60,776 nucleotides of DNA, filler included, from Hausera hauseri (GCA_046269625.1; 11 parts of 11 records of this genome joined end to end with filler, not necessarily neighbours in it), one strand, 5' to 3'. Shown: positions 1-37,779, counted from the whole stretch's first letter. Program-made: numbers and translations. Notes: a model not told the origin generated them from the letters alone.

Positions 1-5
1 CTTAC

Positions 6-3000
6 CAAATTCTGTGGTGTATTTGAAATAGCCGGATTCGACTCGTTCACAGACGATTCGTCTAATCGATAATTTTTTGTGTTATCATTGTTGACTGAAG
101 GAGTACTTTCGTTTTTCAATTTGTCGTTCGATCCACTTAAATCCGAAATTTTTAGATTCTCTTTTCCTTCTTCAAAATCGTTGAAATTGTTCGGATAATC
201 GTCAATTTCCATTGTAACTTCTTCCTCTACTTCAGTAAAATTATTTTGCCATAAGGAAATACCATTTGCGGGTAATTCGTTTTTTGTCGTTCTCAAATCA
301 AAATTTTTCCTTTCCAATTCGTACTGAATATTCGATAGTTTACTTTGCAGATCGGAGACCGAGGAAAACTCCCTCGTCATATCTTCATGACGAATTTCTA
401 AATTACGTAAACTGTCTTTTAAAGCTTCCAAATCCCGTTCTTTTTCTGTCAACGAATTTTCCAATGTTTTAATTTTATAAACTGCTTCTTCGTACATTTC
501 GTTTTTATTTGTTAAGCATTGTTCGTAATCTTCCAATTCCTTTTTTGACTGGCTTGCTAATTCATGATAACGACTTTCCATGATTGTAATTTTTTCCTGG
601 AGATCTTTCAATTCAACATTTCTCTGAGCCATTGTTTCTTCCAGAAGAGCACATCTACTCACTGTTCCTTCTAACAATTCAGTTTTCTCCAACAACCGTT
701 TCTCTAATTCATCATTTCCTTGCTTCAGACTCAGCATTTCATTTTCCTTTGGTGCATTTGCCAGTCTGTCTGTAACTTCTGATATTTCATTAACAATGTT
801 ATCGTATTTTGAAGACAGCTCGTCGAATTCAATTTGCAAATTATTCATTTTAAGTTCCGATAATTTCAGTTTTTCCAATGCATTTGACTTTTGGGCGTCC
901 AAATCTTGAATTTGTTGTTTCGATAAACAAATTTCGTCATTTAGTTTCGTAATCGATTCAATATACTTATTCTGTTTACTTTCTAATTCTTTTGACAACG
1001 TCCTCCAATCTTCAATTTCGTTCGTTAAACTTTCTACCATAACTTTACAACAATTATGATCCTTTTGAAATTCTTTGAAATTCTCTGATGTTTCTGTCAA
1101 CTTCTCTTCCAAAACTCGAACACTTTCCTTCAGATTTTTAATCTCTTCATTTCTCGAAGAATTCTCTTCCAATGCCAACGCCAATTCATTATTTTTTATA
1201 CATTGATCCTGTTTCATTTTTTCAAGTTCAAGTACGGCAGTATCATAAGAAACTGATATCTCTTTCAGATCCTTTTTGAACAATGCAATGCTTTCAACTA
1301 ACGTCTCTTTCTCCGTTGTGAGATTTTCAATTTGTACCAATTGTTCTTCGAATAATTTCCTCTGTTCGGCAAAATTTGATATTTCGTCATCAAGAATTTT
1401 TATTTTCGAATAACAGCAGTCAAGCTCGTTTTGTAATTTCTTTACTTGTTCCGAAGAATTCCACAGTTCTTCTTCAACGGTCTGCAGTTCGTTTTTAGTG
1501 AAAGTTAATTCATTCGTAAACTTAGATCGTTCTTCAATCAATTCATTTTTCAGTTGCTGCAAATTAACATGATAATTATCAATTTCAATTCCGAGTACAT
1601 CATTTCTTTCTCTTAATTTGTCTAATTCGATATTTAGCAAATCGTTACATTCCCGTGACTGAATTAAATCGATACCTGCAACGTCAAGTTCTTTAATAAG
1701 ATGGCCGATTTTTTCTTCTTTTGATGATAACTTCAATTTCAAATTTTCAACGGTAAATTGCAGCAATTCAAATCCACTCAATTCGACGATTTGTTCGTTT
1801 AATTTTGTATTCGCTGATTTCAACTCATTTACGTAACCGGTCAATTCTTGTACTTCATCATTTGCAATTTCTAGATACCTGCGTAAACTTTTAACTTTTT
1901 TTTCGAGTATCCGCCAATTCGTCTTCCAAAGATTTATTCAAATCGCCAAGAAGATCCAGTTCTTTCTCGAAATTCTCCCGTTCGGTATTCATTGCATTTT
2001 GAATTACAATAATTTCCTTTTCTCTTGATTCCATTTCGTTTCTTACAGTTTCACATTCACCCTTCAATCCATTGACTTCAATATTTAACAAATTGTTCAA
2101 CTCAGTCAATTCCGTGGATTCTGCTTTGTATTTATTCAATTCCATCGTGAGAGAAACAATATTTCTCTCCTGATTCTGCAATTTTACATTTGCTTCTTCC
2201 AAATTAGACTTGAATGACTCTTCTTGTTTTTTGGTTTCATTCTGCAACTCAAAATTACGTTCATTCAAATGACATATTTCAACTCTAAATGATTCTGATT
2301 CCATTTGGGATTTAATGTCATATTGGGAGATTTTGTCATTTAAATTCGTGATAGTGTCCTGGTATTTTTCAGATAGTTTTCTTTCTTCATTTATTTGAAC
2401 TCGAAGTTGAACCACTTCCAAATTTGCAGACTGAAGATCATCTCGCAAAACTTTCGTGCTACTTTCATTTGTGCTTAATAACCGTTCAAGTTTGGCAATT
2501 TTTTCATCCTTCACCAAAACTATGTTCGAAAATTCTTCCATTTTCATCTGTAGACTGGAAAGTTCTTGTTTGTAATTTTCCAGATCCAATAACATCTGTG
2601 ACTTCTCAATTGTCAGTAAGTTCACTTTTTCGTCCAATTCCTCGTCCTTTGAGTTGAAACAATAATCTTCTAACTTCTCAAAATCAGCAGTTGGGTCAAG
2701 ATCGATGTTATAAGAATAATTGTTTCGAATTTTGTTCAAAAGAAGTTGACCAAAATTCGAAGTTACATGGCTGTGAAATTGTATAAACTCATTGGACGAA
2801 TTGAAACCCAGAGCAAGTGAATTTGACAATATGTTGAAGGCGGAATCTACAAGCTGGTTAATTTTATCACTATTATCCCAACACAGATTATCAATTTGTG
2901 TTTTAATGTCGTTAAATATTGATGATGGGTCGGGTAAAGATAAACTACTGTTCGTATCGGGTAACTTGCGTTTTTTAACAACTGAGTTATTAGCACCAAT

Positions 3001-4013
3001 AACAACTGCACTATCTTCTTTTAACAACGACTCAGATTTAAACTGATCCAAATCCAAAATCGAATTATCCAATGATCTTTCATCAGATTTGATCAATATT
3101 TGCTCATCTTTTGAATGAACTGAACAATGATTTATATTCCTTTTCTTTCGCGAGTAACTTTCAGATAATAAAGAATTCGCAAGAGAAAGCTCTTCGACTA
3201 GATCATTTAAACGATGTTTTTCGTTTTTTAAACCATCAACATCCGAAAACAAACTTACATTCAACTTCATAGAATCAAAAATTTCCAGGGATAAATCTGA
3301 CACATCAGATTTAGCATCGCGCAATAACTGGTAAATTTGAATTCGGTTTTCAATAGTCATTTTCAGCAATATCTCAATGGTTTCCACACATTCGACATCA
3401 GCACTTGTCTTTTTACTAGCAGACGGACTGAAACATTCGGTATCTAGTAAAGTTGTACCGTGAAGTAATTCCAACAAATTCCAACATGAAATAATAAAAA
3501 TTGATTGACTTAAAAAGTCATTAAAATTTTCAATAACAAAAACATATAGTACCTTAAATCTTCCATGCCATCTCGTATCGTTTTCAAAGTATATTTCAAT
3601 TAATCTAAACATTATGGCACGTGCTGAGTAATAATAATAACATTCATGTTGAATAAAATTTGAGACATACTTTTTTAAAACGCACAATTCTCTAATAATA
3701 TGAGCGTACATACCTTCATTTTTTGAGAAAACCCCTTCACAAATTTCACCGTTTTTAAATTTCTTTATATGTAATTTTACAATTTCATTTTTCTTATAAA
3801 TTCTTTCGCTTCTTGTACAAAGACTTAATTCGGATACACGGAAAACGATGTCTTCAACAATACGTTTAAATTTTTCATAAAGTATAACAAATATCAATTT
3901 TGATTTCGGATGACTTATGCTGGCTAATTTCGTCATTCCATTTTGACACAATTGAGAATTATGAGAACACTCTTCTGAACCTTCTGTTTCGTTTAAGTAT
4001 TTCGTACTGGGCA
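6..4013 (-). CDS. Large exon of a host coiled-coil protein, split by one apparent homopolymer frameshift at ~1896-1903
   Basis: ORF 1891-3951 is open up to the gap and is E/K/L/N heptad-rich. Removing one A from the A8 run (CGA AAA AAA A GTT) continues as RKKVKSLRRYLEIANDEVQEL..., in the same frame as ...NTPQNL followed by a GTAAG donor at 5-1 (downstream frame spot-checked, not fully translated). Confidence 0.7.
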
Positions 4014-4113
4014 NNNNNNNNNNNNNNNNNNNNNNNNNNNNNNNNNNNNNNNNNNNNTTAATTAATTAANNNNNNNNNNNNNNNNNNNNNNNNNNNNNNN
4101 NNNNNNNNNNNNN
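4014..4113. other. Artificial contig spacer N44-TTAATTAATTAA-N44 (same at 10120-10219, 15591-15690, 23168-23267, 30418-30517, 34699-34798, 40254-40353, 44363-44462, 48696-48795, 53905-54004)
   Basis: Identical 100-nt spacer with a six-frame stop cassette occurs ten times; sequence type changes abruptly across each. Confidence 0.98.
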
Positions 4114-5200
4114 CACTGACGGTAATGGAAAGGAATCTTTTATCATAAGATTATTTAAGGCTCTGTAGTCAATACAAAATCGATGTTTTGCGGTGCATTT
4201 CTTCTTAACCATAAGGATTGGTGAATATCATGATCTGTAGCTAGACCTAATTATATCGGCCTTGAGCATTCGTTCGACTTTCTTCATTATCTCGGGGCTT
4301 AGTGAATGTGGTGAAGGGTACCATTTTGGCATTTTCTGGTCTTCCAAGTCTATTTCTTCGTTCGAGCCAGGCTTTTTCTTAAGCGGAATAGTCAGTTTTA
4401 CTTCTTTCGCTCTACCGATATCTTCTTCGTCCTTAGCAATAATCGATTTGTAGCGGCATAATAATTCGTAAAATCAACAATAGGATTCGAAGGAGAACTT
4501 AGTTTCGACATAAGGTGGAAACTCGGCATATTTGTAAGGCTTTTCTTCAATAGTTAACGACGACACTCTATACGTATCTCCTAGAGTCGTGTAAGCATGA
4601 AGCTTGACGGGAGTCTGTGCATTGTTAGCTATTCTGATCGGCACTTGACCGCAGTGAACTCTTGTCAGTATGTTACTAAGTGTTATATTCGGATTTAATG
4701 TCTCCCTTGGTTCGAAATATACCGGTTGATCGTCATCTTGCTGAATTTGTGCGTAAATTATCATTTCTGTTCTCGGTGGAATATCTTCGTCTACGGTCAT
4801 CCATACCTCTTTAAATTTTCTATCCTTAGCGTTTTTCACGCCTTTATTGGGCCTAATTTCTATTAACTTCCCTGTCTGTAAGTCAATTGCTATGTTTGAT
4901 AATCTTTTCAGTAGATTACATCCTAGAACTATATCGTCAGTTAATTGTTCCATAACTGCAAATTCGTGATGGAAAAACTGTCCAACTATTTGAACTTCTG
5001 GGTTCCATTTGAACATCGGTTTCGACATTTGGCCAAAAGCTCCCGTACTTCCTGGATATTTTGTGGATGGTGGGTATAACTGTCCCCTTAGCGATTTAGG
5101 TATAGAATCGTTCTTAATGTAAGATATTTCGGATCCTGTATCGATTAGGGAATAAACTTCCCAATCTTCGATAATGATTTTGTCAAAGAGTCTTCCTTCT
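4114..5200 (-). pseudogene. pol: pol 5' part of copy A: aspartic protease, dUTPase-like spacer, start of Gypsy RT
   Basis: EDWEVYSLIDTGSEISYI...DIVLGCNLL (protease); IPPRTEMIIYAQ...VPIRIANNAQTPVKL..YTTLG (dUTPase-like spacer of some Gypsy pols); [31 protein letters not shown] (RT). Confidence 0.9.
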
Positions 5201-5869
5201 ATTATTCTTCCGAAACAGTTTGTTGCTACTTTTGGACGTTTAGTTGCTGATATCTTATGTCTATTGATTCAGATTTCAGGGAAGGATACTATATTCTCCG
5301 ACAGTTGTCTTAGTTCTTCGTTCGGATATAACTCGTTGTTTTCTAAGTGTAATTCTTCCATTTCATGTGTACTAATTAATGGTTCTCGATTGCTAGTGTG
5401 TAGTTCAGTATTCTGGAAGGTTTTTAACTTTGGGTTGTCTAAAACCGTTGATCTAGTTTCTATATTCTGAGGTTTTCTCGGAGAATACAACATCTTGGGA
5501 CCGTCCGTTGACTGTCGGTAACACATTTTCCGTAGGATCCCGTAGCGTTTCGTTCCTTCATAAGGGTCTTCTACATTAATTGTTCTTTTATAGATTTCCG
5601 TCTGATATGAGCTCATTGATCGTTTGTCACAGTCTTCATAAACCGGAGCGGTAGGAGGTAGCATAGGCAACGGTGCCTTAACGACAGAGTACGCCTTATG
5701 TCTGTTAATTCCTGAAAGTACTTCTCCTCCTTAGGCTCTTCATCATCTGAATTATTTTTTCGTATGTTCGGTTTTATAAATTTCCGCTTTCGCAAGAATA
5801 TAGGCCTTCCTCTTCGTTTACGATTATAATAACTGTCATGGCGTTTTACGTCCGATTTCCATCTACTTT

Positions 5870-7757
5870 CTTCGTATGCCTTAAAGAATTTTCCAAAAGG
5901 CCTTATTATTGCAGTCAGTATTTTACATAAAAACCTAGTCAATGTAAATATTTCATACCCATTAATTACTGCTTGGATGACTGCTTTAATCATCTGTATT
6001 TGAAAATATATCGCTAAAAATCCTGATGCAGCTTGTCCGAAGATTAAAAATCATCACAAAATTTTGTATAGTATTTTTGTTGTTACTTGCTGATAATGGT
6101 TTACGCCGAGTAGGGATTCCCATTTAGCCTGATATCGTGTATCGCCTACTACTGAGGCCATGGCTCGGTTTAATTCATATGTTCGATGTCTCGGAAAAGC
6201 GAGGAACTGTCTGAAAGCTTTCAATTTCCTTAGGTCTGTATATTCCTTTTGACGAAGTGTCTTGAAATTTATCATCTGTAATTCCTTTCGCAAGATTTGT
6301 TCTTGCTAATTTATTTGGGGCGGCAGTAATGCCTCCATTTGGCAAACTAACCCAGTCTGTTTCACTACGCCTAAACATGGACTCTCCTAAGCTCGCCTTA
6401 CAATCTCTAAGGATGGTTGGCTGGGTCGCGTTGTCCAGTAACACTCTTGTCAACGGTGTAGCTAACCTGTGAGTATTTTGATAAATGACAGGAAGTTCCT
6501 GAATGTAGCGTTTTTCTTCTACGTTAATGGGTACATCTCTCTTTTCGCATTCATAGGTTAGCAGTACTTTACCTGTGACCCGATCGAAAATCCACTCTCT
6601 CATAGGTATTATTGGGGAAGCCAATTCTGGGTTTGCATATATAAGAGCCATTTTAGTCCTCATGATTTCAGTATCTAATTTGAAGTCATTCATTATCATT
6701 GTGTTATATAATTCCGTTATTCCGACTTGTTCTTTGTAATAGAAGTAATTGTCTCTATTTTTCAGATAGTCCTCCATTCGGACATCCTGAATTTTTAGTT
6801 TGTAAGTTTTTGCATTTATTTCTGTTTCTTCCACGAAAAATGCCTCGTAGTTAGGGGCAAACATCACTACATCACAACGAGAGATCATCTCTTTTTTAAT
6901 AAAGTTCAGTCCATGTTTATCTGAGATTAATATAGTAAGTGTAGGATGTTCCGATATATCCTCGCGCATCCTTGAGTTGGTATCCGATTTATCCACATAT
7001 TTCTTTCCGGTAGTTTGATTAAATTTCAGTTCCTTAACTTTGATAAAATTACACCTTCTTCCAGAAGGTAGTTCCCAGATTATAACAGAACTTCTAAAAG
7101 CACAAGTTCCATCTTGTAAATAACACTTCTGATTCTCAGTGTATAACTTAGTGACATTGTGGAACATTACTTTTTGTGATCGCATCTCTGATTCGTAGAA
7201 ATCCGCGAATACCATATTTGATAGTAATCCTTTTCCGGTGTCATATTCTGCTCCGTAACTATGTCCACTATGCATATCTAACCTTCCGGCCACTACCTTC
7301 TATGCTCTAATAATTTTTCCCGGTTGCATTTCTAATTCTATACTATCCCATTGTACTCTCCCGGTCTCCTTGGCATGTTTACAGTGCTGGCGTTCTAAGT
7401 TCATAGGAATTAGAGGAATTTTCGGCTTGATTATGAAGAATGTCCATGTACTAATCCACAGTGGAAAATGCTACGTGATCGCCTCAGCATGCATTCCATT
7501 ACATCTAACGATATCAGTTCTTGTTGTTGGTGCAAGAAATAATTTTTCTCTCTTGTTTCCAACTTGTGTGGCCTAGCATCTTTGCACACTTCTAGATCTA
7601 TCAGGGAATATCTCTGCCCTAGTTTAAACTTATCGCAGTGGTAGACGGTAAGAGCGCTTATGTGTTTTATTAGCATCATCAAGTTGAGTAGACTGATTAC
7701 CAAATTTGATTCATTTTTCCAATAATCAACATCCGCTGTTGTTAAGTTACATAACAT
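5870..7757 (-). pseudogene. env: Chuvirus-like (class III/gB-type) envelope glycoprotein of copy A, frameshifted
   Basis: Signal-like LVISLLNLMMLIKHISA, then LTVYHCD...YSLIDLEVC, ECMLRRSRSIFHCG, TPLTRVL, KGIY..KEIESF/RQFLAFP, and TM region FLIFGQAASGFLAIYF..MIKAVIQAVING. Spread over ORFs 7431-7757, 6175-7293, 6054-6293 and 5613-5993. Confidence 0.8.
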
Positions 7758-7794
7758 ATCGTATATTTTATTCCCGGTCCTTCTGTCTTCTTCC

Positions 7795-8180
7795 TTGTCA
7801 AACAGTCTTGACCAATTTACTTTTCAGGCCAATCTTCTTGCTGCTTTTTGTGCCAAGCTTATGGCTCTATTGATTTCATTCTCTCGATTAGGGTTTATTT
7901 TGATAGCTAAGTAGAGTAATAATTTTCTCAATTCATCATTGGTGTTTTCTACCATGATCTTTTCGATTATCGATTCATCGGTTAAGTTACTTTTTGACAG
8001 TTTAAAACGTGAACTTCTTATCATTCTGGCTGCATCGAATATTACCTTTTCTTCATCATCTAGTACATCACCTCGAAGGCTCGAATAATTTACAATTCGT
8101 ATTAAATTCTTCACTAACTCACTTAATTTCTCATTGTTTGTATTGAGAGTCGCAATCGTCATTTGCCTCAGTTCTCTAAT
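7795..8180 (-). pseudogene. Helical Bcl-2-like domain of copy A (divergent)
   Basis: DESIIEKIM..DELRKLLLYLAIKI..NRENEINRAISLA..RRLA*KVNWSRLFD aligns with the Bcl-2-like region of copy B (…IKRIGGWDRLFD). Confidence 0.45.
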
Positions 8181-8424
8181 CAATTCTCCATTATAGTCCA
8201 CTTTTTCTCGCGTTTTCTTAGGCTTACCAACTGGGCCTGTCGGACTTTGGCCCCTAGCGGTTAGTTCACTCAGTGGTACTAAATTCATATCGTATTGTTC
8301 CTTGCCTTCATCCGTTTGTAAATATTCGAAATACATTGCAGTATCTAAAACTCCCATAATCTGTCCCACGCACTGTTTTGACTTTACCTTACGTGTGGCT
8401 TCCTCTTTTGTTTGCTGGTTAGCT

Positions 8425-8635
8425 ACTGTTGCTACTATTCGATTTGTTTCGTCGGGAATAATCCCGACATCTATTAATTGTTCTAGGTCGCCGAGTATTC
8501 TACCTTTAAGTAAAATCTATAGTTTTGCTCATTTGTTCCGCCATTGTTTAATAACCACTCTCTTACGTCTTTTACAGAGGACTATGTAGTTAACTCGCAT
8601 TCTTTTTCGTCCATCCACTAAGATGATATCATTAT
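8425..8635 (-). pseudogene. Ubiquitin-like domain of copy A (frameshifted; absent from ORF track)
   Basis: Joined translation DIILVDGRKRMRVNYI/SSVKDVREWLLNNGGTNEQNYR/ILLKGRILGDLEQLIDVGIIPDETNRIVATV parallels ubiquitin [32 protein letters not shown]...LHLV. The last part is in frame with ORF 7824-8369. Confidence 0.65.
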
Positions 8636-8639
8636 TTTC

Positions 8640-10110
8640 ATGGCTACCTCTGGTTTAGCCTTTAAAAAATTAGCGTATTTCCTATTCAAAAGTTTCGGCA
8701 CCGTGCTATAAATCGTATTCTCATTTGATAATTTAGTTAATGTTGGAATGAGTTGTCTTAAATTACTTTCAGTAATGTTTACGTTAATTAGTTCAATTAA
8801 CTCTTTTTCAGATAGCGCTTAATCCAGAAGCATATCCATATCGAATGTCCTGTCCTGCGGACATGTCTCTATCTCGTTCAGTTGCACTGGAGCCACGGGT
8901 TTCTCGTCAAGCATTGCGTCGAATTACGCATCCCATTCGGGTTCATTTCCAGCATCTGGAAGTCTGTAGTCCACTAAGGCTGTATTCGTTCTTTGCACAT
9001 TTTCACGGATTTCTTTCAATCTAGGTTGTATTTCCTTCATCTGTGTAGTTCGGAAACCTACTCCGTTTCCACAGGCATACTGAATCACTTTTAGTAATTC
9101 ACCTAATTCATTAGAATTAATCAGCCCCTTTTGGCGATAATCTGTTAGTTTAATAATTACCTCTCTTTGCAATCTTTGTACGAATTCTCGTTTGTTTTTG
9201 ATTTCTGACTCGGTAAAAGCATATTTGTTTCGGTAGGTTTCGAGTTCCTTTGCTAGTTCATCTGCTCTTTGTTTCGTTCTGATGCACGTTTCTTCTACTT
9301 GCTGTAATTTTGGCATCAATTGCCTTATCTTCTCTTCATTAATTTCCGCCATTTCTACGAAATAAGTAGGCTAACTCATACATTTCATTAATGACTTTTG
9401 AGTCGGGATTCATCGCATCCAACAATTTCTTCACGAACTTAGATTCTTTCACACTAAGATGTTGGTCGTTTCGTATCTTTATCAACTCAGTATGCAAATT
9501 CTGATCTGATCCGGCCATCCATTTTTGTGGCTTATGCAAAAAATTTTTCGTGTCCGTTAAAACGGCTCGGTGTTCCGGGAAAATGTCTAGGGTTTCGATA
9601 TCTTGACCAGAGATCTCATTGATAGGTTTATCTGTTAGATGTTGAATTTCTTCTAGTCGAACATTTCTCAATCTTGGGTAAAAATTGGAAGTCATATTTC
9701 GCTTCTCTGCAAAATTCGTCTTTTTGACCATTTTATAGATCTCTTCCAGTATCGTCGCTTCTTGCTTTTTCTTCATAAAATTAAATCGTCGCATTGCCTT
9801 GAATCTCGTTCGGATATCTATTTCTGCTAGTATCGTATCTAAATTACGTGAGCTTTCTTCTAACTGTTTCTTTACAAAAGGCTCGCTTTCTGGAAATTCC
9901 TTCTTACGATTCTCCACTAATTTACTTAGTTGCATCACTAATTCGGACCATTCCGACAATTGGTTGGCGATTATTGGCTTTGCCATTATAGCCTTATCTA
10001 ATATCTTATAAGCATCTTTTAACTCATTATCTGGTTCTTTTATGAAATCCATAATCCGGCTGACGTAGTTAAACTCATCCTTATATTCATCAAATTCTAT
10101 GATGCAAGTT
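8640..10110 (-). pseudogene. Helical/coiled-coil accessory region of copy A upstream of Ubl
   Basis: ORFs 9339-10052 and 8924-9352 plus in-frame continuation past TAA stops to ~8640. Charged, helical composition; same strand as the element. Confidence 0.55.
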
Positions 10111-10219
10111 TTTATTATGNNNNNNNNNNNNNNNNNNNNNNNNNNNNNNNNNNNNNNNNNNNNTTAATTAATTAANNNNNNNNNNNNNNNNNNNNNNNNN
10201 NNNNNNNNNNNNNNNNNNN

Positions 10220-10470
10220 AACCAACTAGATAATTAGGTAACTAACCAACTAGATAATTAGGTAACTAACCAACTAGATAATTAGGTAACTAACCATCTA
10301 GATAATTAGGTAACTAACCAACTAGATAATTAGGTAACTAACGAACGAACCAACCAACTAACTATAACAAACTAATTAACCAACCATGACTAACTAACCA
10401 ACCAACCAACCAGCCAGCCAGCCAATCAAGCAACGCACGAACCAACAAACCAACCAACCGACCAACCAAC
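10220..10470. repeat. 24-bp minisatellite (AACCAACTAGATAATTAGGTAACT) x5 grading into (AACC/AACT)n
   Basis: Direct inspection. Confidence 0.95.
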
Positions 10471-11079
10471 TAATTACAATTAATCCGGGACTCATTTGAC
10501 AGAGAGCGTTATAAATTCTAATTATGGGTTACATTGGTCTGGTGTATCAATTTTTTCCACGACAGCAACTGGACATCTTTTAAAAAACTAATTTGGAAAT
10601 ACGAAATGTAATACGCCACTGACCTTTACACTTTACATAATGTGTGAATTGGCTAGTCTTATGGTGCACACGGTTATTATGATGTAGCTTTGTTGAATAA
10701 AATACACACTGAACGCTGCTGCTGAAAACGACTGCTTTGAGTAAGTGTGGATGCTTTCTCATTCAATTGAGACGCAATTCAATATGTTCCTCGTAGCGAC
10801 CGCGCAATGGAGACATCACGCAATCCGGAGTAACAATGACATTTTCGAACAAATTATTGAACTACTGTAACAACGTCAGACAAAGTATTTTACCTGATGA
10901 GGAAACGAGCCTGACAGTATGCGGACAAATATGGCGCCAGGGAATTAAAAACTTCATTGGTAATTTTATTTGTATGGTATTGCATATATTCTTCCACTGT
11001 CTTCTTGACATAATTAAATGAGTTCGCGTTATCTTCATCATTCCTTACTATATTATCTTTCACTTTTCTTATCCCTGCG

Positions 11080-11345
11080 ACCCCTTTGTGGATCATGGGT
11101 CGTCTACAAGAGCTCTCCAACCTTTTCTCTTCTGGGCCTTTCTTTCTATCTGATTCCAGATATAGCCAAACTTTTTTGTATCTGCCTCGAAGTTTCTGTG
11201 CCAGGTATTTCGTGGTCTTCCTGCTTCCCTGGGGATTCAAGGTCAGTGCCTATCTATTACAATTTATAGGGGGTTTTCGCAGCGTATGTCCTATCCATAT
11301 CCAGCGTCTTCTTACACTATCTTCGTCAACTGGGTATTTTACTAT
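11080..11345 (-). mobile_element. RTE-type LINE 3' fragment
   Basis: VRRRWIWIGHTLRKPP....ALTLNPQGSRK matches the post-RT WIGHTLRK..ALTWNPQGKR motif of RTE-clade LINEs. Confidence 0.75.
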
Positions 11346-11399
11346 AGTATCTTACCTTTAAAAATGTTTATCTTGTCCAAAGACACCCTACGCAGTGGA

Positions 11400-11745
11400 A
11401 TGAATGAACGAATGAATGAATGAATAAATGAAATCTTTATTTAGCCAGGGTTGAAAAATTGGCAGTGTTGCCTTTTTACATTTCTGCCTTGAGGGTAGAT
11501 TTTTCCTAGAATTTAGTCCTGATAGCGGCCATTAGGCCTTCTCTTTTTCAATGTCCAACTGCCAAGGGATTTTTAACGTGCCCGACAAAGTACACGGACG
11601 CCCGATTTTATTACCCAGAGATCAAGGGAATTTATTACTAGAAGATCTAGAAGAGTAAATTTGAACCCCTTACCTTGGTATCTGGATCTCTACGCCGTGA
11701 AGAGAAAGTAGTTCCAAGTTACATAGTATAATATGTAGCTTAGCA
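11400..11745 (-). mobile_element. Possible tRNA-derived SINE (Nin-domain-like core) with (GAAT)n tail
   Basis: Box-B-like GGGTTCAAAT on the minus strand (~11659-11668), core GGGATTTTTAACGTGC..CACGG, and TGAA repeats at 11400-11430. Confidence 0.35.
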
Positions 11746-11849
11746 AGCTAGGCTGGCTCTGTCTTTTGTTATCAAACTATTTCATATACTGGGGTGCTAC
11801 TGGCTTATGGCAGTTTAAGCGTTGCCACAGTATGATGCTTTCATCAGCA

Positions 11850-12065
11850 ATAATAATAATAGCAATCATCATCATCAGGTGCCATGCTGCGAAGCATAGG
11901 CCGTCAAGGATCGCCATTTCTCTGAATTCCTGGTGCCCCCAATCATCTGTGCTTACTTCCGAGCCATTCTTGCAAACCATCCAGATACTTCATTCTTTGT
12001 CGTCCACTACTTCATTTTCCTGGTATTTTGCCTGTGGTAACCAAATTCTCCAGAACTTCTCTTCT
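11850..12065 (-). mobile_element. RTE-type LINE 3' end with (GAT)n tail
   Basis: LENLVTTGKIPGK*SSGRQRMKYLDGLQEWLG; shares near-identical sequence with 13160-13295. Confidence 0.75.
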
Positions 12066-12714
12066 TAAAATAGGGCCAATCATAGATGTTTGTCTCTTTC
12101 TGATCTTACTGAAAATAACTCATTTAAAGAAAAACTTAACTGTGTAAAGTCAAGAATAAACATAAGAACATACAACTAACAACTTTAGCATTACGTCAGC
12201 AGCTAGAAAGTCGACAGGAAGGCAGTATCATGATCCCCGTGACTATTTCAAAGAATCAAAAGTCACTTTTATTCGGAAACCAAGACGTCTGACCTTTCAA
12301 CAATGTATCCCATTCGTATCGATGAGACTAGGTGCCCCATCACAACTGTCTCAGGATCGGTGAAAGGGGGGGGGGGGTATGTTTATAACAACCAATGAAA
12401 AATGATAACACCAGCTCTACATTCCCTTATAAGTTTTTGGCCCTGGTTGTGAGACTATTTTCTTTACTAAAGAGAAGGAGAAAAATTGACTTTCACATAA
12501 ATTCGCATCAAATGAAATCACTCAATAACGGAAGAACGTCATGTCTGTGAATCCTTTGATTTTACCCTCCCTTCTTCTTTTCCACTCCAGTATATTTTCT
12601 CCCGACTGGTACAACACCTTCCATGACAGTTGTTTGTTTATTTGTTTATTTGTTTACAAGATCACTTGATCTTGTGATTGAGCCACACTATTCTCGTTGG
12701 TTTTAGAAACTGGG

Positions 12715-12985
12715 AAAAACTTGTAGCAAATCGCACGACCATGGGAGTCATTACTATGCAGAAGCAAAACAGCATTCGATACTGCATTATTCAACAAGCT
12801 GGAAGACAAGAGATGTAGACGCACATATTCAGAAGAAAATAATATAGGTGTAGCCTGTTCATATTGTGGCAGGATCTGTAAGTCAAACATTGGTAAATTT
12901 ATCCATAAAAGAAGCTGTTCAGTGGGACAGCAGCCAACTTTTTCTGCTTTCAAGACCGTCTGACCAGACGAAAAGGCCAATCAAT
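12715..12985 (+). mobile_element. LINE 3' fragment with terminal C2H2 finger
   Basis: NRTTWES...VACSYCGRICKSNIGKFIHKRSC, typical of RTE-like ORF C-termini. Confidence 0.65.
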
Positions 12986-13159
12986 ACTAGTGAATATGAA
13001 CATTATCATTAATTCGCGGGCGTAGACCATCGTCCATCACGTCTTGTTGTGTTTCATATGATATCAGCAAATGCTCGTATATACTTTGTTTAATTAACAC
13101 TTTCACTGCTATCCACTGATATATCAGTGGTTAAAAATGCCAGTTTTCATACGAAACAA

Positions 13160-13295
13160 ATATCATCATCACCATTAGGTGCCGTGCTGAGAAGTGTAGG
13201 CCATCACGGATCTCAATTTCTCGCGATTCGTGGTGTCTCCAATCAGCTCTGCTGTTGACCTATTTCCGAGCCATTCTTGCAAACCATCCAGACAA
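13160..13295 (-). mobile_element. RTE-type LINE 3' end, second copy
   Basis: LDGLQEWLGNRSTAELIGDTTNREKLRSVMAYTSQHGT* followed by GAT repeats. Confidence 0.75.
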
Positions 13296-14499: not shown

Positions 14500-14740
14500 C
14501 ACGCGACTTATGGTGGTCGCTGTGGTATATTGACGACTCTCCTCTATTCGCGTCGATCCTTTGCTGTGATTTGTGATACGCTGGCCTGTCAATTCCTTGG
14601 TTGTTCTCTAAACTTACCTTCTGTCTACCTTGCTTTCTCTTGTCCGATACTGTGCACTGTAATGTAGTTTTTGCTAGGCCTACAGATCTTGTAATGTGAC
14701 AATACCATCTCCACTTTCGTTCCATAAAATCAAGAAGCAA
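14500..14740 (-). mobile_element. RTE-type LINE fragment
   Basis: RKWRWYCHITRSVGLAKTTLQCTVSDKRKQGRQK; a related plus-strand remnant (WKDNVREL) lies at ~13790-13990. Confidence 0.7.
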
Positions 14741-15690: not shown

Positions 15691-16075
15691 TCCTCACTGT
15701 TGGGGATCACTTCTATATTGCCATCAATGTTGCCTAATTCTCGGACTATGAAGTGGCTGTCATAGCCACTAAGATTGTGGAATACCACAGGCACATATGT
15801 GCATGTTTTGCAGCGAAGATTACAGTTGTTACATGCTGCGCCCCGATATGCATCTGTAAAATGGCAGTGATCCTTGACGTTCCAATTTTCCTTGGTGAAG
15901 GACTTGTCGCACAAGTAGCATGATGCTGCCTTGCACTATTCTTGTTCTTGTATCCAAGACATGCTCATGTCGTTTTTATGTTGTTGTCGCATCTTTTTTA
16001 ACTTATGAGCCATGTCTTAAAGCCTCTTCATAATAACATTTTGAATGCTTCTGATTGTATTAAAATAATAAGATC
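15691..16075 (-). pseudogene. Polinton/Maverick/adintovirus-type protein-primed DNA polymerase B, N-terminal fragment
   Basis: CYLCDKSF..VKDHCHFTDAYRGAACNNCNL (endonuclease VII-like) then VPVVFHNLSGYDSHFIVREL..IEVIPNSE (exonuclease). Confidence 0.9.
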
Positions 16076-16084
16076 ATTTCATCA

Positions 16085-24117: not shown

Positions 24118-27100
24118 CTATGGTTCGAAAAGCATTACTCCATTGATAATATTTGGTGAATATCCTTGTATTAAATGTTCACTTGCGGGTTTCAGAATAA
24201 TTCCTTCTGGGATGATAACAACATTTTTACGGAGTTTTATAGTTGGAATTACTAACTGTCCAGTAGCTAAATTAAGATATCTACCTATGCATTGACGTTG
24301 TAAATCTAGTCCAATTATTACTTCTTCAATTAATTTATCAAATACCTTAAAGGTGTGTTTTAACCTTTTATTATAAATAATAATAGAAGTTGTCCAATAT
24401 CCAACTGGAAGTAGTTTATCTCCCCAACCTGATATAGTCGCTTTGTCAGACTTCCTTGGTGGTTCTACTTCTGTTTTAAATCTTTCAGGTATACTATCTA
24501 ATCGAATGATTGAGTCATCGCTCCCGGTGTCTACTAAGGCAAGTATATCCCAATCATCATGAATAGTAACTAAGGTATACGGACGTTTTGATCCCATTTT
24601 ATCCTTACTTGTTCGTAAAGCACACATGTGATTGAAGGAAGGTATTATAACATCAAGGTTTCCTTCACTGTTTGGATTGTTCACATTTCCATTATCATCT
24701 GGGTGTATTTCGGTTATAGTTACGTTTGTAGTTGGCTCTTTTAATTGCTTTCGTAATTGTTTATATTTAATATAGTCGGCTCTACTTCCTGAATATAACG
24801 CATCTACTTGTCTTTCTATCAAACTTTCAGTTTCAATTCTATTTAACGGTGGTATTGGTAGTCTCTTGTCTTTATATTCTCCAGCATACATCATTTTCGC
24901 CTGATGAGAGGTAAATGAAACGTTATGATATTCGACAGGATTATGAGCTCGCTGAGGGACTAACTGATAATCATTTGCTGCTATATTTTTCATAAACTTC
25001 ATTATTACGCTTCTATGCGTTGTTCGTACTTTAGGATTTTTTTTAACCTTTTTTTGTCGTTTCTTGCCAATTGTTACTTTTGTACTACCGTCAATATTAT
25101 CATCGTCATTCCCCTCACGATCACGCATACATTGCGCCATAAATGCATGTTGTACGCACTTCGCTAGCGGAGGACAAAGTGCTGTTAATAGTTTTTTTGA
25201 ACAGCCAAATAATTGAAAATTAATAAATCCGCTAGTAATTTGAGAGATGATGGTCCTCAAAATTTGAACTATAAAGTAGACAGCTAAGAATCCTGATGAT
25301 ACTTGGCCAAATGTCATTAGACCTCCCCACAACTTTTTAAATATCGTTTTTGCCGCTTTTGTAAAATGGTCCGGACTCAAAATGTTTTCCAAATTCGTTC
25401 TCCCATCTACTGTGTCCGTTATTTTTTGAGTGTATGACACCACTAATCTCTGGATTTGTTTTGGAAACAGTAAGTAACGTCGTAATTTTTCCATGCTAAC
25501 AGCGTCATATAGACCTCCTTGAAAAAAATTGACATTGTTATCGAAAATTAATTTCTTTTTAAACGCCAACATTATCAGTTTTTCAGGAGTTATCACTTTT
25601 GTACGAGATGGCAACGTTACCCAATGATCATGACCTATCTTAAATAATGGTGCAATATTTCTAATACATTCCTTTAGAATAGTTGGCTCTTCTGATGTTA
25701 ATAGCATCACCCTGGTTATTGGTGCAACATACCTCAATTTTCCAATATACTGTACTGCAATTTCGTTGGTACACGCTGTTGTATCCATTACCGGTACCTC
25801 CACTTCCCGACATTTAAATGTTAGTAGCCCTTCGCCTGTAGTTCTTGCAAATATCCCTTTTCCTTTAATTGGTAATATTGGTGTATCTATTGATGGATTA
25901 TGTGCTGCAACGGTAACTCTTAGGGCCAGAAGATCCTGCGAAATTAAACAATCATTTTGAATCATTTCTTTATATAACTGGTATTGATTATGAATCATAT
26001 AATGAAACAGGTAATCCATCTTTCCGTTGTAATATATAATGGGCTTTACTTCGGTAGGATGAATTTGTCTATTAGCTTTGTCTATTTCTTTTTCTGTGAT
26101 ATATATATCCTCTATATTCGTAGCATATACCTCCGTTTTACATTTATTTACTAGCTTCTTTCGTATTAATCGTATTGCATCTTGAGCTGTAGACATAAGA
26201 ACTGCTGGGGTTTCAATTTCTGCTAGCTTTTGTATCTCATCGTTTTGTCGCTCTTCGTGATCCCTTACTGGTTTTCCAAATCTTATTCCTTTCGTAATGT
26301 TAAATTTTACTTCCTTGAGGAAGGCCAAATTACACGTCGTAACACTGATTTCCCACGTAATTACTGAGTCAGTCGTATAACAGTACCCTCTACCATATGA
26401 ACAATCAGGCTTTACCATCAAATTTAGAGTATCCGCTTCGAAGGTTATCTCTTTATCCATTACTGTCCACGTATACAAATTTTGAACAACTAATCGGGAT
26501 ACTCCGTCTACCGTTTCACCTGTACATCCACCATCGGAATCCAACACACCCACCTCATTGATTGTTAAATATTTAATTCCATTTACAATAGTCTGAATTT
26601 CTACCTTGGAATTAATCCTTAATTTCCCAGTTTTTATTGCTTCCTTACAATCATCAGGTAAGACGCGTTGTGGTTCATCTGGTGAAGCCATTAATACATT
26701 AGTCGAATGATAATGCATTTTTCCACAATGCCACTTTTTGGTTTGCTTCGTGAGTCTACATTCGAACGCCTTTTTGCGGAAGAATTTATTTTCCTGATAT
26801 ATATAATATGTTGTTTCCGGTTCCGCAATTAACTTGTCTGGCTCTGCATCCGGACATTTCTCTAAGTCAACAAGTGAATATGTAGCACCGACTTCAGGAT
26901 TGTCACAATCAAATGCTTGAATGCTTTGTCCTTGAGGGATTTTCATAAAAAGGAATATTATAAGTAGGAGGCCCAACATTCCACTAATATCTACTTTTGA
27001 CGGTAATTTAAACATTCCTTCTAGATATCGAGTAGTTTCTAATGTTTTCCTTATTAGACTTTCACTAGTCTTTCGTTCTGTCTTCGATCTCCTCTGGTGG

Positions 27101-27144
27101 CCTAATTGTGTGTTGGAAATCAAATAATCTATCCCATCCTCCAA
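24118..27144 (-). CDS. Envelope glycoprotein-protease fusion ORF (signal 26923-26979; G to ~25140; cytoplasmic linker; protease ~24255-24590; dUTPase-like spacer continuing past the TAG to ~23975)
   Basis: MLGLLLIIFLF..SIQAFDCD..YSLVDLEKC, ECRLTKQTKKWHCGKMH, YVAPITRV, GGLYD..MEKLRRYLLFP, LWGGLMTFGQVSSGFLAVYFIVQILRTIISQITSG..LFGCS..LLTAL (chuvirus-G-like pattern); uninterrupted to ALVDTGSDDSII...VIIGLDL. Confidence 0.88.
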   Translation of the reverse strand: MEDGIDYLISNTQLGHQRRSKTERKTSESLIRKTLETTRYLEGMFKLPSKVDISGMLGLLLIIFLFMKIPQGQSIQAFDCDNPEVGATYSLVDLEKCPDAEPDKLIAEPETTYYIYQENKFFRKKAFECRLTKQTKKWHCGKMHYHSTNVLMASPDEPQRVLPDDCKEAIKTGKLRINSKVEIQTIVNGIKYLTINEVGVLDSDGGCTGETVDGVSRLVVQNLYTWTVMDKEITFEADTLNLMVKPDCSYGRGYCYTTDSVITWEISVTTCNLAFLKEVKFNITKGIRFGKPVRDHEERQNDEIQKLAEIETPAVLMSTAQDAIRLIRKKLVNKCKTEVYATNIEDIYITEKEIDKANRQIHPTEVKPIIYYNGKMDYLFHYMIHNQYQLYKEMIQNDCLISQDLLALRVTVAAHNPSIDTPILPIKGKGIFARTTGEGLLTFKCREVEVPVMDTTACTNEIAVQYIGKLRYVAPITRVMLLTSEEPTILKECIRNIAPLFKIGHDHWVTLPSRTKVITPEKLIMLAFKKKLIFDNNVNFFQGGLYDAVSMEKLRRYLLFPKQIQRLVVSYTQKITDTVDGRTNLENILSPDHFTKAAKTIFKKLWGGLMTFGQVSSGFLAVYFIVQILRTIISQITSGFINFQLFGCSKKLLTALCPPLAKCVQHAFMAQCMRDREGNDDDNIDGSTKVTIGKKRQKKVKKNPKVRTTHRSVIMKFMKNIAANDYQLVPQRAHNPVEYHNVSFTSHQAKMMYAGEYKDKRLPIPPLNRIETESLIERQVDALYSGSRADYIKYKQLRKQLKEPTTNVTITEIHPDDNGNVNNPNSEGNLDVIIPSFNHMCALRTSKDKMGSKRPYTLVTIHDDWDILALVDTGSDDSIIRLDSIPERFKTEVEPPRKSDKATISGWGDKLLPVGYWTTSIIIYNKRLKHTFKVFDKLIEEVIIGLDLQRQCIGRYLNLATGQLVIPTIKLRKNVVIIPEGIILKPASEHLIQGYSPNIINGVMLFEP

Positions 27145-28987
27145 TTCTTTTTATGTCTACGGATAAATAATTCTTTGTAATCTCGGCAGCAACATCGAGC
27201 CCCATCTCAATTTCTTCTCTATTTTGAGCGGAATTTTTTACTCTCATTAAAAGAAATACCAAAATTGTGATCACTCTATCTTTCGTGAATTCCCCAGTTT
27301 TTATCCACCTTTGAATGACGTCTCCATCATCTATGGAATCTATTTTATTTGGTAATTGTTCATTCAGAACAACTTGTTTCAATCGTTGCAAAGCCCGTCG
27401 TAACTGTTCTTCAATATCTAAATCACACGGTTTCTCACATAATTGAATTGCTTCCTCTTCAAACAACACATTATAAATCTTCCATAATATGGACCTAATT
27501 TGTCGGATCTCTGGATCCATAATCTTAATTTCGCTTTTGCGTAACCCTCTGGTTAAGGTATCCACCTTAACCTGTTGTAATAAATTTTTCGGCGGTCTCC
27601 CTGGTGGTTTTTTATCAGTTTGTGTTTGATGGTGCTCAGTTTCTAAATCAGTCAAGTCTTGTACTTCCGAAAATACTTGCAGTGGTTCTGGGGTGATTAA
27701 TTCTTCAGACTGATGTTCCGGTCCATTCCTCACCTTCAATGGTCTCACTACTTCAGTCAAGGCCAAAACACTTTTAATTTGTTTTTCTAGCTCTTTTTCA
27801 TTGTCTTTGTTAGTTTTCCTATGTTCATCTATATGTATAATGACAATTTCATCCGCGTCCATTTCTGGTACGATACCCAATTCTGACCATGTAATACTTG
27901 CATCATCTGTCTTTCTACCCATAAATTCCACAGTTATAGTCCCAGTATTTTCATTCCCATAATATTTTCTATAGTAACTCTCGACTGTTTGGAGTGTCTG
28001 CCAAATCGTATCCAATGGATTTATCATAATTTCCAAATCATCACTTTTTGATCCAATTCGCATTTGAAATTTGACTAAAATTTCTTTTTGACAATTAAAA
28101 GTTTTAAACTTATCCTTATGTGAAAACATTTGTAGTATTAATCTCGCCATGTCCCTTCTCGGACAATTATCCGCAGCCTGCTGTACTAAAAATGGTCTAA
28201 TTTGCAAAAATCTTGCCCTTTCATCAGTAACCCATTCACGTATTTTGTATAATTGGTTTAAGCCGGCCGTCATTATTCCATCATCTTTCTCGTTTCCTTT
28301 AATAATTTCTACCAATGTTTTAAAGGCATTTTCCTGCCATGCTATATCCAATTCATAGTTGATTTCGCGACTTCCTTCCAACGATATCGATGGAGTGTCT
28401 ACATCTTCTTCTAATACTAATATACTTATGTCATTCTCTTGAACTTTCACGTCATTTCTTTTAACTACCTTTTGAATTAGGTGTTCCTCTAATTTATTCT
28501 TTAAGGATACAGCCTGATTATCTTGAATATTCTTCAGCCTTTGAAATTGATTCTTAACATCATCCCGTTCAAGCGTTAACCGTTTTATTTCTAGAAGCAA
28601 CTGGTCATTCGACATGTACAATTCCTGGGAACTATTTAAATCTAAAGGTACATCTAAATACTCCTTTATTTCTGTATCATTTATTTCCGGAACATTCAGC
28701 ATTTGTCGATGATTCATGATTTCGTCTTCGACAAATACCAAATTGTTACTATATATCTCTGAATCAGACTGCATAATAGATAAATTACTGGTTCCAGTTA
28801 TCAGCGGGCACACCTTCGCCAAATGTCCTGATTGACCACAATTAAAGCAATTTTTATGTTTCTGCAATACTGGTTGCTGTACTAACGATTGGGTTGTCAT
28901 TAATTGCTGCACTGGCATTTGCAATGGACATCTTTTAGATGTGGCCCCACTGACCACAAGTATTACATTGTTTCGGTGTTTGAACAT
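27065..28987 (-). CDS. Gag C-terminal extension: CCHC knuckle, coiled coil, Ubl (27827-28084), AT-hook-like (27584-27613), Bcl-2-like (27116-27520)
   Basis: CFNCGQSGHLAKVC; ILVKFQMR..LEIMINPLDTIWQ..ITVEFMGRKTDD..TWSELGIVP..IVIIHI; KKPPGRPPK; GEFTKDRVITILVF (BH1-like) and YLSVDIKRIGGWDRLFDF (BH2-like). Confidence 0.75.
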   Translation of the reverse strand: MFKHRNNVILVVSGATSKRCPLQMPVQQLMTTQSLVQQPVLQKHKNCFNCGQSGHLAKVCPLITGTSNLSIMQSDSEIYSNNLVFVEDEIMNHRQMLNVPEINDTEIKEYLDVPLDLNSSQELYMSNDQLLLEIKRLTLERDDVKNQFQRLKNIQDNQAVSLKNKLEEHLIQKVVKRNDVKVQENDISILVLEEDVDTPSISLEGSREINYELDIAWQENAFKTLVEIIKGNEKDDGIMTAGLNQLYKIREWVTDERARFLQIRPFLVQQAADNCPRRDMARLILQMFSHKDKFKTFNCQKEILVKFQMRIGSKSDDLEIMINPLDTIWQTLQTVESYYRKYYGNENTGTITVEFMGRKTDDASITWSELGIVPEMDADEIVIIHIDEHRKTNKDNEKELEKQIKSVLALTEVVRPLKVRNGPEHQSEELITPEPLQVFSEVQDLTDLETEHHQTQTDKKPPGRPPKNLLQQVKVDTLTRGLRKSEIKIMDPEIRQIRSILWKIYNVLFEEEAIQLCEKPCDLDIEEQLRRALQRLKQVVLNEQLPNKIDSIDDGDVIQRWIKTGEFTKDRVITILVFLLMRVKNSAQNREEIEMGLDVAAEITKNYLSVDIKRIGGWDRLFDFQHTIRPPEEIEDRTKD

Positions 28988-30146
28988 ATGGTAGAGTTAC
29001 AACTGGAGCTTGTATAAGCAACGGGCGTGATTTAGCGATGTGACCAAACTGTTTGCAGTTATAAAATTGAATTTGACATTTAATATTAACATTTTCACGC
29101 TCCATAACTGCCACAATATTAGATGAACCTTGTGCGTTCAACGATCGTAACGGGTATTGATGTGTCGGTCTTACATTACTAATCGGTTGTGTCATCTTCA
29201 TTCTATTAGGAGCTGCGCCCGTAGCCATCGCATTAGTTAATGGTGGACCATTTGGTCTCATCATAGGGAAAACCACTGATGGATTAGACTGTGGAACCTG
29301 TTGTTGAGGTGTCCTAAATTCAGGTCTCGTTGTCCATTGTGGCTGGGCATAAACCCATTGTTGTTGTTGCCTTTGAACTCAAGGTCTTTGAACCCCAAAT
29401 TGTCCTGATCGTATTGGTTGGTTGATCCTACGATTTCCACAATATTGATTGGATCTTACATTCATAATTGGTGCACGCAATATTACAGATGTATTGGCGT
29501 TATCTACAGGTTTTATCACAGCATTTCCCGGGATAGTCTTCTGAATTATTTGATTCATTTTAGCATCTACATTCTTCTATGCAATAGCCCGTTTCACCAA
29601 GTCCCCAAAGGTAAAAGCTTCACTTTCAATAAGACGACTTTGAACCTTCGGGTTCCTTAATCCCGTTATGAAACAATCTACTAAGATGGGTTCCGTCTCA
29701 AACACTTTTCTTTCTCTTGAAGATTCGTTTTTAATTCTATCTTCCGTTTCTAGTGCCAGTTTGTAACGCTTCACTAATGCTTGTAAAGCTAATGCAAACA
29801 TATTAACCGATTCACCTACTTGCTGAGTCCGTGATCTTAAATTTCGTAGACGTGCGTTAGCTGACGAATCCGGATCAATATACTTTTTTAATTTTTCAAT
29901 AACTTCCTTCAATGTAAAATCTTCCTTATCTTCAATCTGAAGATATGCCTGCAACGCGACTCCTAAGTACGTGACTAGTTTCCCAATTTTCTCATTATCC
30001 TTCCATTCCAGGCCATATGCCTGAGCATCTTACATGAGAATAAAATCGTCGAATCTAGTGGGATCACCAGCATAACGTTGCAAATTTAATCCAGCATACA
30101 ATTGAGTCGTATTCTTCTTAAAATCCGTTTCTGAATCTTTACTCAA
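28935..30146 (-). pseudogene. gag: Retrotransposon Gag (capsid, Q/P-rich linker, two degraded CCHC knuckles)
   Basis: LQRYAGDPTRFDDF..AYGLEWKDNEKIGKLVTYL..RTQQVGESVNMFALAL..FITGLRNPKVQSRL; FYNCKQFGHIAKS and CNTCGQWGHI/SKRC. One frame with premature stops. Confidence 0.85.
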
Positions 30147-37774: not shown

Positions 37775-37779
37775 AAGTA

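Follow-up and report, generated by a model that had tools for sequence, protein, structure and literature searches.

A Bcl-2-like domain in front of an internal glycoprotein signal peptide in decayed Gag-Env-Pol elements of Hausera hauseri, with a possible role of the peptide as membrane anchor

Introduction

The Burro elements of dugesiid planarians are the closest described relatives of the two retroelements, A and B, that were analysed here in a stretch of Hausera hauseri DNA (GCA_046269625.1). In the available portion of its description, Burro ORF1 carries Gag, MATH, ubiquitin (Ubi)/SUMO-like, BCL2, Env, protease (PR), dUTPase-like and reverse transcriptase (RT) regions in frame and was described as the first env to lie in frame between gag and pol; decayed Burro fragments with stops and shifts were found in Dugesia japonica (PMC6431247). 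Burro1 was reported to protect planarian stem cells via a captured region of an inhibitor of apoptosis protein (IAP) (PMC13465017). GAG-ENV-POL elements with a gB-type glycoprotein were described from Platyhelminthes, Bryozoa and Nematoda (PMC13524379). A precedent for a signal peptide with a second function comes from rubella virus, in which the E2 signal peptide (23 residues) is retained on the capsid protein and required for its association with membranes and mitochondria (PMC3040668). In A and B, a Bcl-2-like domain precedes the signal peptide of the glycoprotein (G), and the junction between the two is the subject of this study.

The window, i.e. the whole stretch of 60,776 nucleotides (nt), consists of 11 short contigs with N-linker filler between them, an order that does not imply adjacency in the genome. 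Element A lies on contig 4114-10119 and element B on contig 23268-30417; both run on the minus strand, to which all their features below refer. They are probably decayed members of two distant families of the Ty3/gypsy Gag-Env-Pol type and relatives of Burro. A preliminary description of the window had treated them as two copies of one element. This relationship was ruled out by blastn, which gave no significant match between these separate contigs (best E 0.44), and by tblastx, in which most blocks had 20-42% amino-acid identity.

Open reading frames across the junction in related proteins

A full HMMER search with the G of B as query returned 977 matches, the best 150 of which were listed; the 19 with E<=1e-40 were examined. 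With this query, open reading frames (ORFs) for a stand-alone G are equally findable, and most of the weaker matches were of that type. The relatives are database proteins and were compared at the protein level only. Five of the 19 begin within G and are uninformative here, and 14 keep the glycoprotein signal peptide. Upstream of this peptide the frame is open in 12 of the 14, over 116-1332 in-frame residues; with off-frame stops as dense as in A and B, 110 codons would stay open by chance with a probability of about 1e-5. The other two start at the signal peptide, namely P0002, a 272-residue fragment with 72% identity to B, and P0020, a stand-alone G of 666 residues. Word-index homologue searches with the G of B found nothing, and a six-row profile of the Bcl-2-like domain returned only its inputs P0003 and P0010 in such a search.

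The Bcl-2-like domain is in frame with signal peptide and glycoprotein in four of the 12 open relatives (P0003, P0006, P0010 and P0018); a motif scan of 151 proteins and a profile scan, covering the best of the 977 matches, revealed no further bearers. In these four, 24-57 residues separate the Trp of the Bcl-2 homology 2 (BH2) motif from the hydrophobic region (h-region) of the signal peptide. Three of these linkers are devoid of Met, so that G cannot initiate there. P0018 combines Gag, zinc knuckle, a ubiquitin-like domain (Pfam E 0.031), Bcl-2-like domain, signal peptide and G in a single frame, and its tblastn alignment extends to both ORFs of B and through the stop of A. Single frames were also present in P0003 (Bcl-2-like, signal peptide, G, PR) and, without Bcl-2, in P0017 (capsid, G, PR, RT, RNase H (RH) and integrase (IN)); the relatives follow the order PR-RT-RH-IN with an H2C2 integrase. 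Judged by these proteins, the Bcl-2/signal-peptide/G arrangement is beyond chance, as it is kept in one frame by four independent relatives. The frames of P0018, P0003 and P0017 support the earlier proposal of a single ancestral polyprotein, which has already been published for Burro (PMC6431247), and an open ancestral frame is very likely.

An alternative source of G would be a spliced env RNA, which would make the upstream open frame a by-product of Gag-Pol read-through. Spliced env RNA is the rule in insect errantiviruses, and the 1:1 ratio of Gag, Env and Pol from a single polyprotein would be odd. Yet the 150 nt before the h-region contain no strong acceptor (best pyrimidine tracts 6/12 in A and 8/12 in B), and Pol follows G without a change of frame, so that any Gag-Pol product would cross the signal peptide anyway. 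We regard this explanation as very improbable.

The junction in elements A and B

In A, the frame from 8516 to 7431 is interrupted by a single stop, a TGA, and the peptide RRLA*KVNWSRLF...LVISLLNLMMLIKHISA-LTVYHC was read as in the preliminary description. The TGA (7824-7826) does not mark the border between Bcl-2-like domain and signal peptide. It falls within the BH2-like motif, upstream of the conserved Trp by four codons and of the hydrophobic stretch by about 38. The motif ends with WSRLF (7800..7814; WDRLF in B) and has no preceding Gly-Gly. It is followed by a charged linker (7710..7799; 37 residues from Trp to hydrophobic stretch, one Met) and by the internal signal peptide (7653..7709), which was assigned by hydropathy and the (-3,-1) rule, with the h-region at 7709-7668 and the c-region reaching to 7653. 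The predicted cut falls between 7653 and 7652 (I-S-A / L), and the PF24664 model starts at the signal peptide.

Frameshift-aware alignment to the relatives revealed 10 breaks in A between 8510 and 4114; at this density, the chance of finding one within 170 nt of the junction is about one in three. Given 10 breaks in about 4.4 kb (2.3 per kb), the TGA reads as decay. Programmed read-through of the TGA was considered and rejected: the stop sits inside a conserved motif, is one of the 10 breaks and is common to no relative.

The +1 overlap described earlier for B was recovered. The Gag/Bcl-2-like ORF (28996-27065) and the G-PR ORF (27150-24118) are in +1 relation and overlap by 86 nt (27065..27150), and the frame change was located between about 27133 and 27068. 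The signal peptide of B extends over 26923..26988 (h-region 26988-26944; predicted cut between 26923 and 26922).

This overlap could reflect a genuine split in the lineage of B, in which Gag-Ubl-Bcl2 (Ubl, ubiquitin-like) would end without an anchor and G-Pol would be made by occasional +1 frameshifting or from its own start codon. The shift is the only break of B in 28849-24121 (about 4.7 kb) and falls in a short linker. Met codons 31 and 19 residues upstream of the predicted cut would provide an ordinary N-terminal signal peptide; P0002, the nearest relative of B and its sister on the quick tree described below (SH-aLRT 100), starts with Met-Met at the h-region; and a heptamer that stands in frame at 27106 differs by one base from the +1 site of Ty1. 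B is, however, decayed elsewhere, with three stops and a shift in Gag and a stop at 24118, and its overlap contains no -1 slippery heptamer. Moreover, P0002 is a fragment known as protein without its DNA, and most relatives are open as given above. B itself offers no evidence for an open junction and may offer evidence for a split one. As an account of how G-Pol is made, the split is improbable; a split junction restricted to the lineage of B is possible though doubtful, and for the family it is much less probable. If real, it would set the ratio of Gag to Env-Pol and give soluble and anchored forms.

Support for the Bcl-2-like domain

The domain was aligned in six rows, namely B, A (up to the stop), P0003, P0006, P0010 and P0018, with no cellular Bcl-2 included. 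Whole-ORF Pfam scans of A and B missed it. The profile of the six domains matched Bcl-xL at E 0.002, and the best 60 of 144 matches all belonged to the Bcl-2 family. PF00452 matched five of the six members (best E 3e-5), A being the exception. In a leave-one-out test with 771 targets, B, P0003, P0006 and P0018 were recovered at about E 1e-12 or better (B 1.6e-12) and P0010 at 6e-5.

The domain of B (27095..27532) was supported by AlphaFold2 (AF2), VIA, Foldseek and profile. Predicted with the six-row alignment, it reached an AF2 local confidence (pLDDT) of 80.8 and a global confidence (pTM) of 0.79. In VIA, the model gave Z 11.3 with a root-mean-square deviation (rmsd) of 3.4 over 126 aligned residues; rows 1-33 were all of the Bcl-2 fold and the first unrelated row had Z 6.0, with the top Z lying below the caution level of 13 for helical bundles. 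Foldseek returned a probability of 1.00 and TM 0.60, with a best E that was weak at 0.009. Folding from the single sequence reached only pLDDT 43.8, and this model had no Foldseek match under E 0.2; the domain searched alone had no PDB sequence match and no usable Atlas match. By the alignment-based model, the domain of B is a Bcl-2 fold. Its BH2 Gly-Gly-Trp stands in IGGWDRLF (27145-27122), and GGW is also present in P0003, P0006, P0010 and P0018. The BH1 equivalent of B (27307-27251) is without NWGR, a signature that none of the six members has when aligned to the GVNWGR of Bcl-xL. A C-terminal tail anchor of the Bcl-2 family's own was not found in the six bearers, and in all of them the next hydrophobic stretch is the signal peptide of G.

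The label of a Bcl-2-like domain given in the preliminary description therefore holds for B by fold, profile and PF00452, and only weakly for A, which had no PF00452 match in Pfam and whose BH2 is shortened, lacks Gly-Gly and is interrupted by the stop. In the leave-one-out test, A was the best non-member of the 771 targets with an E of only 0.25. It was collinear with the five-member profile over 111 columns and scored above 100/100 hhalign shuffles and 1998/2000 hidden Markov model (HMM) shuffles. Its helical core (7827..8165) was placed by this collinear profile and by same-frame tblastn with P0003, P0010 and P0018. By position and weak similarity, the domain of A appears to be a degenerate homologue.

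The VIA matches to the B model included poxvirus A52, B14 and N1, which share the Bcl-2 fold and have non-apoptotic functions. The fold may have a non-apoptotic role in these elements as well.

Signal peptide and membrane topology

The conserved [YF][DH]C start of G served as the homologous reference point for the cut sites, with the (-3,-1) rule as a rule of thumb. Position -1 was small in 15/16 sequences and position -3 small or aliphatic in 16/16, in agreement with the earlier claim of an internal signal peptide that is cleaved by signalase. Cleavage by signalase at this peptide is, on the residue pattern, highly probable. We also considered whether the h-region derives from the tail helix of a captured Bcl-2 protein; the same pattern occurs in Bcl-2-less and stand-alone G proteins, which identifies it as the signal peptide of G.

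No hydrophobic stretch other than the signal peptide follows BH2, and no 19-mer of the Gag/Bcl-2 ORF of B has a hydropathy above 1.6. In B, P0005, P0006, P0008, P0010 and P0014, G is bracketed by the signal peptide and one segment about 550 residues further on; exceptions in hydropathy were P0017, with one extra upstream segment, and P0003 and P0007, whose peptides fell under the cut-off. Two membrane crossings would bring Pol back to the cytosolic side. In its orientation, an internal signal peptide corresponds to a Bcl-2 tail anchor. Given this topology and the rubella precedent, the chances that the Bcl-2-like domain is held in the membrane by a retained signal peptide seem about even.

Evolutionary history

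A quick tree was built from 28 G sequences (18 close matches, eight stand-alone proteins, B and the longest unbroken piece of A; P0019-P0021 and the remaining matches were left out). All six Bcl-2 bearers fell into one 13-row clade (SH-aLRT 99), alongside four open-frame elements without the domain; five further open-frame, Bcl-2-less elements stood outside this clade. The simplest reading of the tree is that the internal signal peptide was there first, that a tail-less Bcl-2 domain was gained once in front of it, and that the domain was lost at least twice, in some lineages.

A model for membrane attachment and its alternatives

From these observations we derive the following model, which we hold to be slightly better than an even bet as a whole. 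Intact members would encode a single polyprotein of Gag, ubiquitin-like, Bcl-2-like, internal signal peptide, glycoprotein, membrane segment, protease, RT and integrase, a step that builds on the open frames of the relatives and on the published case of Burro. According to hydropathy and general knowledge, the internal signal peptide would enter the membrane of the endoplasmic reticulum (ER) co-translationally with its N-terminal end in the cytosol, signalase would free G into the lumen, and the C-terminal segment of G would stop transfer and return Pol to the cytosol. The signal peptide would remain on the upstream product, in the manner of the rubella capsid, as the sole membrane anchor of the Bcl-2-like domain. 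The viral protease would probably trim Gag away, and the product could be a protein of Bcl-2 fold that is held at the membrane and dampens the death of host cells. Whether the peptide serves as a lasting, functional anchor is in our estimate an evenly balanced question.

Several observations weigh against this model, in addition to the possibly split junction of B and the weak domain of A. The Bcl-2 domain is missing from eight of the 12 open relatives, and no single match among the proteins examined spans Gag-Ubl-Bcl2-G-Pol. Spliced gene models may be among the database proteins; in P0147, the sequence continues into a MRP-L47 domain of the host, and P0010 uses 5,889 of the 7,573 nt of its contig, which leaves little space for introns. 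The h-region is short, with an uncharged run of 12-18 residues (mean 14.7) in the six Bcl-2 bearers against a mean of 19.6 in the ten others (p 0.04, with rows that are not independent), and its peak hydropathy is no different between the two groups. A short and no more hydrophobic h-region in the bearers means that no adaptation to an anchor role is visible. On the tree, the Bcl-2 label required five changes and clustered no better than shuffles (178/500), A and P0010 formed long branches, and the internal signal peptide also occurred outside the Bcl-2-bearing clade; judged by this distribution, the signal peptide is probably older than the Bcl-2 domain. Finally, the rubella capsid is anti-apoptotic, and the signal peptide was reported to be dispensable for its block of apoptosis (PMC3040668).

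Part of this evidence also fits a reading in which one polyprotein is made, the signal peptide serves G only, and the Bcl-2-like domain becomes soluble after the element's protease has cut the charged linker or signal peptide peptidase (SPP) has cleaved the peptide within the membrane. The short h-region, which resembles that of Bcl-2-less relatives, and the occurrence of the peptide outside the clade fit such a soluble product. The linker between BH2 and h-region is variable, exposed and longer than the 15-25 residues between BH2 and tail in cellular Bcl-2 proteins, and relatives carry up to several protease domains that could act on it. In flaviviruses and hepatitis C virus (HCV), the signal peptide is removed from capsid and core, respectively, and the upstream protein is released, so that the flavivirus analogy drawn in the preliminary description points the opposite way. 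Against a soluble product stand the position of the domain, which in 6/6 members adjoins the signal peptide and has no tail besides it, a last cytosolic slot before the membrane that fits selection for anchoring, and the persistence of the peptide in rubella virus (PMC3040668). We consider a soluble domain rather unlikely, and a retained anchor remains our preferred interpretation.

A more far-reaching version of the anchor model is tentative: this flatworm retroelement lineage might use the leftover signal peptide as a working anchor, so that envelope synthesis would place a protein acting against cell death on the membranes of the ER or of mitochondria, and the +1 switch or split of B would toggle between soluble and anchored forms. 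If the anchor model holds, a second anti-death module persists in compact relatives without IAP, with its anchor supplied by envelope biogenesis. It would account for the Bcl-2 domain always being the last unit ahead of the signal peptide, and would provide a simple, testable model for the sorting of a Gag-Env-Pol polyprotein at the ER membrane.

Architecture of the two elements

The order Gag-Ubl-Bcl-2-Env-PR was found broken in A and B and open in P0018 and P0003, with a weak call for the ubiquitin-like part. Both A and B contain the class III fusion glycoprotein PF24664 with an aspartic protease next to it, and in B gag and pol flank this glycoprotein. Long terminal repeats (LTRs) were not found on the contigs of A and B (6.0 and 7.2 kb). 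Of RT, A retains only the start and B nothing. A dUTPase-like stretch between PR and RT is motif-like by eye in both elements and had no Pfam match.

The 5' part of A is missing, as the contig end cuts the element. Upstream of its ubiquitin-like stretch, A has at least 490 codons of helical coding sequence without zinc knuckle (8650-10119); the equivalent in B has 255 codons. A may derive from a larger element of Burro size. The C-terminal half of the ubiquitin-like stretch lies at 8400..8516 and the first half just upstream in a different frame. The assignment is weak: the stretch was the best non-member match of a profile of its four positional homologues (E 0.0005-0.16) and had no Pfam match. 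The glycoprotein of A (5886..7652) is a class III protein of the Monjiviricetes/gB type in broken pieces, three of which matched PF24664 (E 5e-8, 2e-16 and 1e-7), with breaks near 7435, 7300, 6216, 6054 and 6051. The region 4114..5181 contains the aspartic protease (5181-4900; PF00077 E 0.0013), the dUTPase-like stretch and the start of RT, with tblastn matches to P0005/P0008 reaching 4114.

In B, Gag (28805..30089) comprises a capsid-like region and zinc knuckles (zf-CCHC in Pfam; tblastn with residues 21-131 of P0018, E 2e-8), and its stops and frame change were evident from a three-frame reading. The ubiquitin-like stretch (27830..28081) was assigned by position and eye inside the tblastn match to residues 197-748 of P0018 and gave no match when searched alone. 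Members of the ubiquitin-like profile did not recover one another in leave-one-out runs. A function of this stretch as cleavage signal was rejected, since neither B nor P0018 nor A has a C-terminal di-Gly where the domain ends. The glycoprotein ectodomain (25030..26922; PF24664 E 1e-73) is followed by a single C-terminal membrane segment (25293-25246, by hydropathy) and, in the same frame as G, by the aspartic protease (24588-24292; PF00077 E 0.0003) within 24118..24588, with the stop at 24118-24120.

An AT-hook-like GRP[KR] motif was observed in B (27587-27604) and in P0018, P0004, P0007 and P0008, upstream of the position of the Bcl-2-like domain; it is also kept in relatives without this domain, and A has only a looser basic motif (8214-8237). 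Two or more tandem aspartic-protease domains follow G in P0003, P0004, P0007, P0008, P0013 and P0015. DEDD-exonuclease-like stretches were noted by eye upstream of G in P0010 and P0014, with no Pfam match at E 0.05. In P0005, P0008 and P0014, extra hydrophobic segments lie in the several hundred residues past the integrase, which suggests that the polyprotein closes with a further membrane protein.

Other features of the window

A third, separate gypsy element occupies 34799-39783 (+). Its RNase H-integrase ORF (Pfam) is overlapped by an ORF of 683 residues with a signal-like start, an RTKR furin-like site and a C-terminal hydrophobic segment, which matched the PDB 'fusion protein' 9w4d (E 0.004) and, on these features, probably represents an F-type env, with pol before env as is usual. 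The regions 48796-52676 and 54187-58082, an inverted pair with 79% identity on neighbouring contigs, are both decayed gypsy pol regions. A satellite of about 7 kb (about 16050-23167) with 4-base periodicity and extreme strand skew lies upstream of the linker before the contig of B. Two long overlapping coiled-coil ORFs on the minus strand (3-4013; ORFs at 3-1937 and 1891-4065) have no clear introns and probably represent a host gene with a frame change. Contig 10220-15590 contains a 120-nt direct repeat with 80% identity (11865-11985 and 13165-13292).

Comparison with known systems

The gene order of A and B is already known from Burro. Like A and B taken together, Burro and GYPSM1 have a Gag with CCHC knuckles, Ubi/SUMO-like and BCL2-like regions, a mononegavirus-like Env, PR and RT; theirs lie in one frame and include a dUTPase-like region (PMC6431247), for which A and B show a motif-like stretch by eye. 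Burro elements are giant, exceeding 30 kb, and have long LTRs. B is compact in comparison, Gag through signal peptide taking up about 1,050 codons, whereas Burro ORF1 measures 4,873-5,140 residues (PMC6431247); BIR, MATH, ankyrin or RING domains had no Pfam match in B. The available text on Burro contains neither 'signal peptide' nor 'anchor' (PMC6431247). The GAG-ENV-POL errantiviruses of the HSV (herpes simplex virus)/gB type likewise have Env between gag and pol and a class III glycoprotein, and their ectodomains are flanked by a signal peptide or second membrane segment; by eye, domain I of the G of B resembles the Smed_errantivirus rows from Schmidtea (PMC13524379). Together with the low GC content, this likeness suggests a flatworm host. 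Their ORFs are handled as separate, unlike the single polyprotein proposed here, and the terms 'bcl', 'ubiquitin' and 'polyprotein' are absent from the accessible main text, with no real match in the text of seven supplements (PMC13524379). Anakin, a BEL/Pao element with a chuvirus glycoprotein, represents capture of the same glycoprotein family by an LTR retrotransposon; it differs in its BEL/Pao backbone, and the available account has no discussion of Bcl-2 or signal peptide (PMC7642597).

Among Bcl-2 proteins, the viral CNP058, A179L and KsBcl-2 and the cellular Bfl-1, Mcl-1 and Bcl-xL aligned to the model of B with Z 10.9-11.3 and rmsd 3.4-4.4 over 123-135 residues, and the BH2 Gly-Gly-Trp of B and four relatives is a further likeness. 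Differences are the low identity (11-20%), the missing NWGR and own tail anchor, the embedding in a polyprotein and the shortened, broken BH2 of A. No statement of the anchor idea was found in the literature searched, and Grohme 2018, Sacco 2022, Lee 2026 or their supplements may contain one. Its closest parallel is rubella virus, where the upstream cytosolic part of a polyprotein likewise retains the signal peptide of the next glycoprotein as anchor; the capsid has, by that account, no Bcl-2 fold (PMC3040668). To these systems the present analysis adds a compact form without BIR, MATH or ankyrin in B, model-based structural support for the Bcl-2-like domain, a likely gain of this domain ahead of an internal signal peptide that was already there and, as a proposal, the use of this peptide as its membrane anchor.

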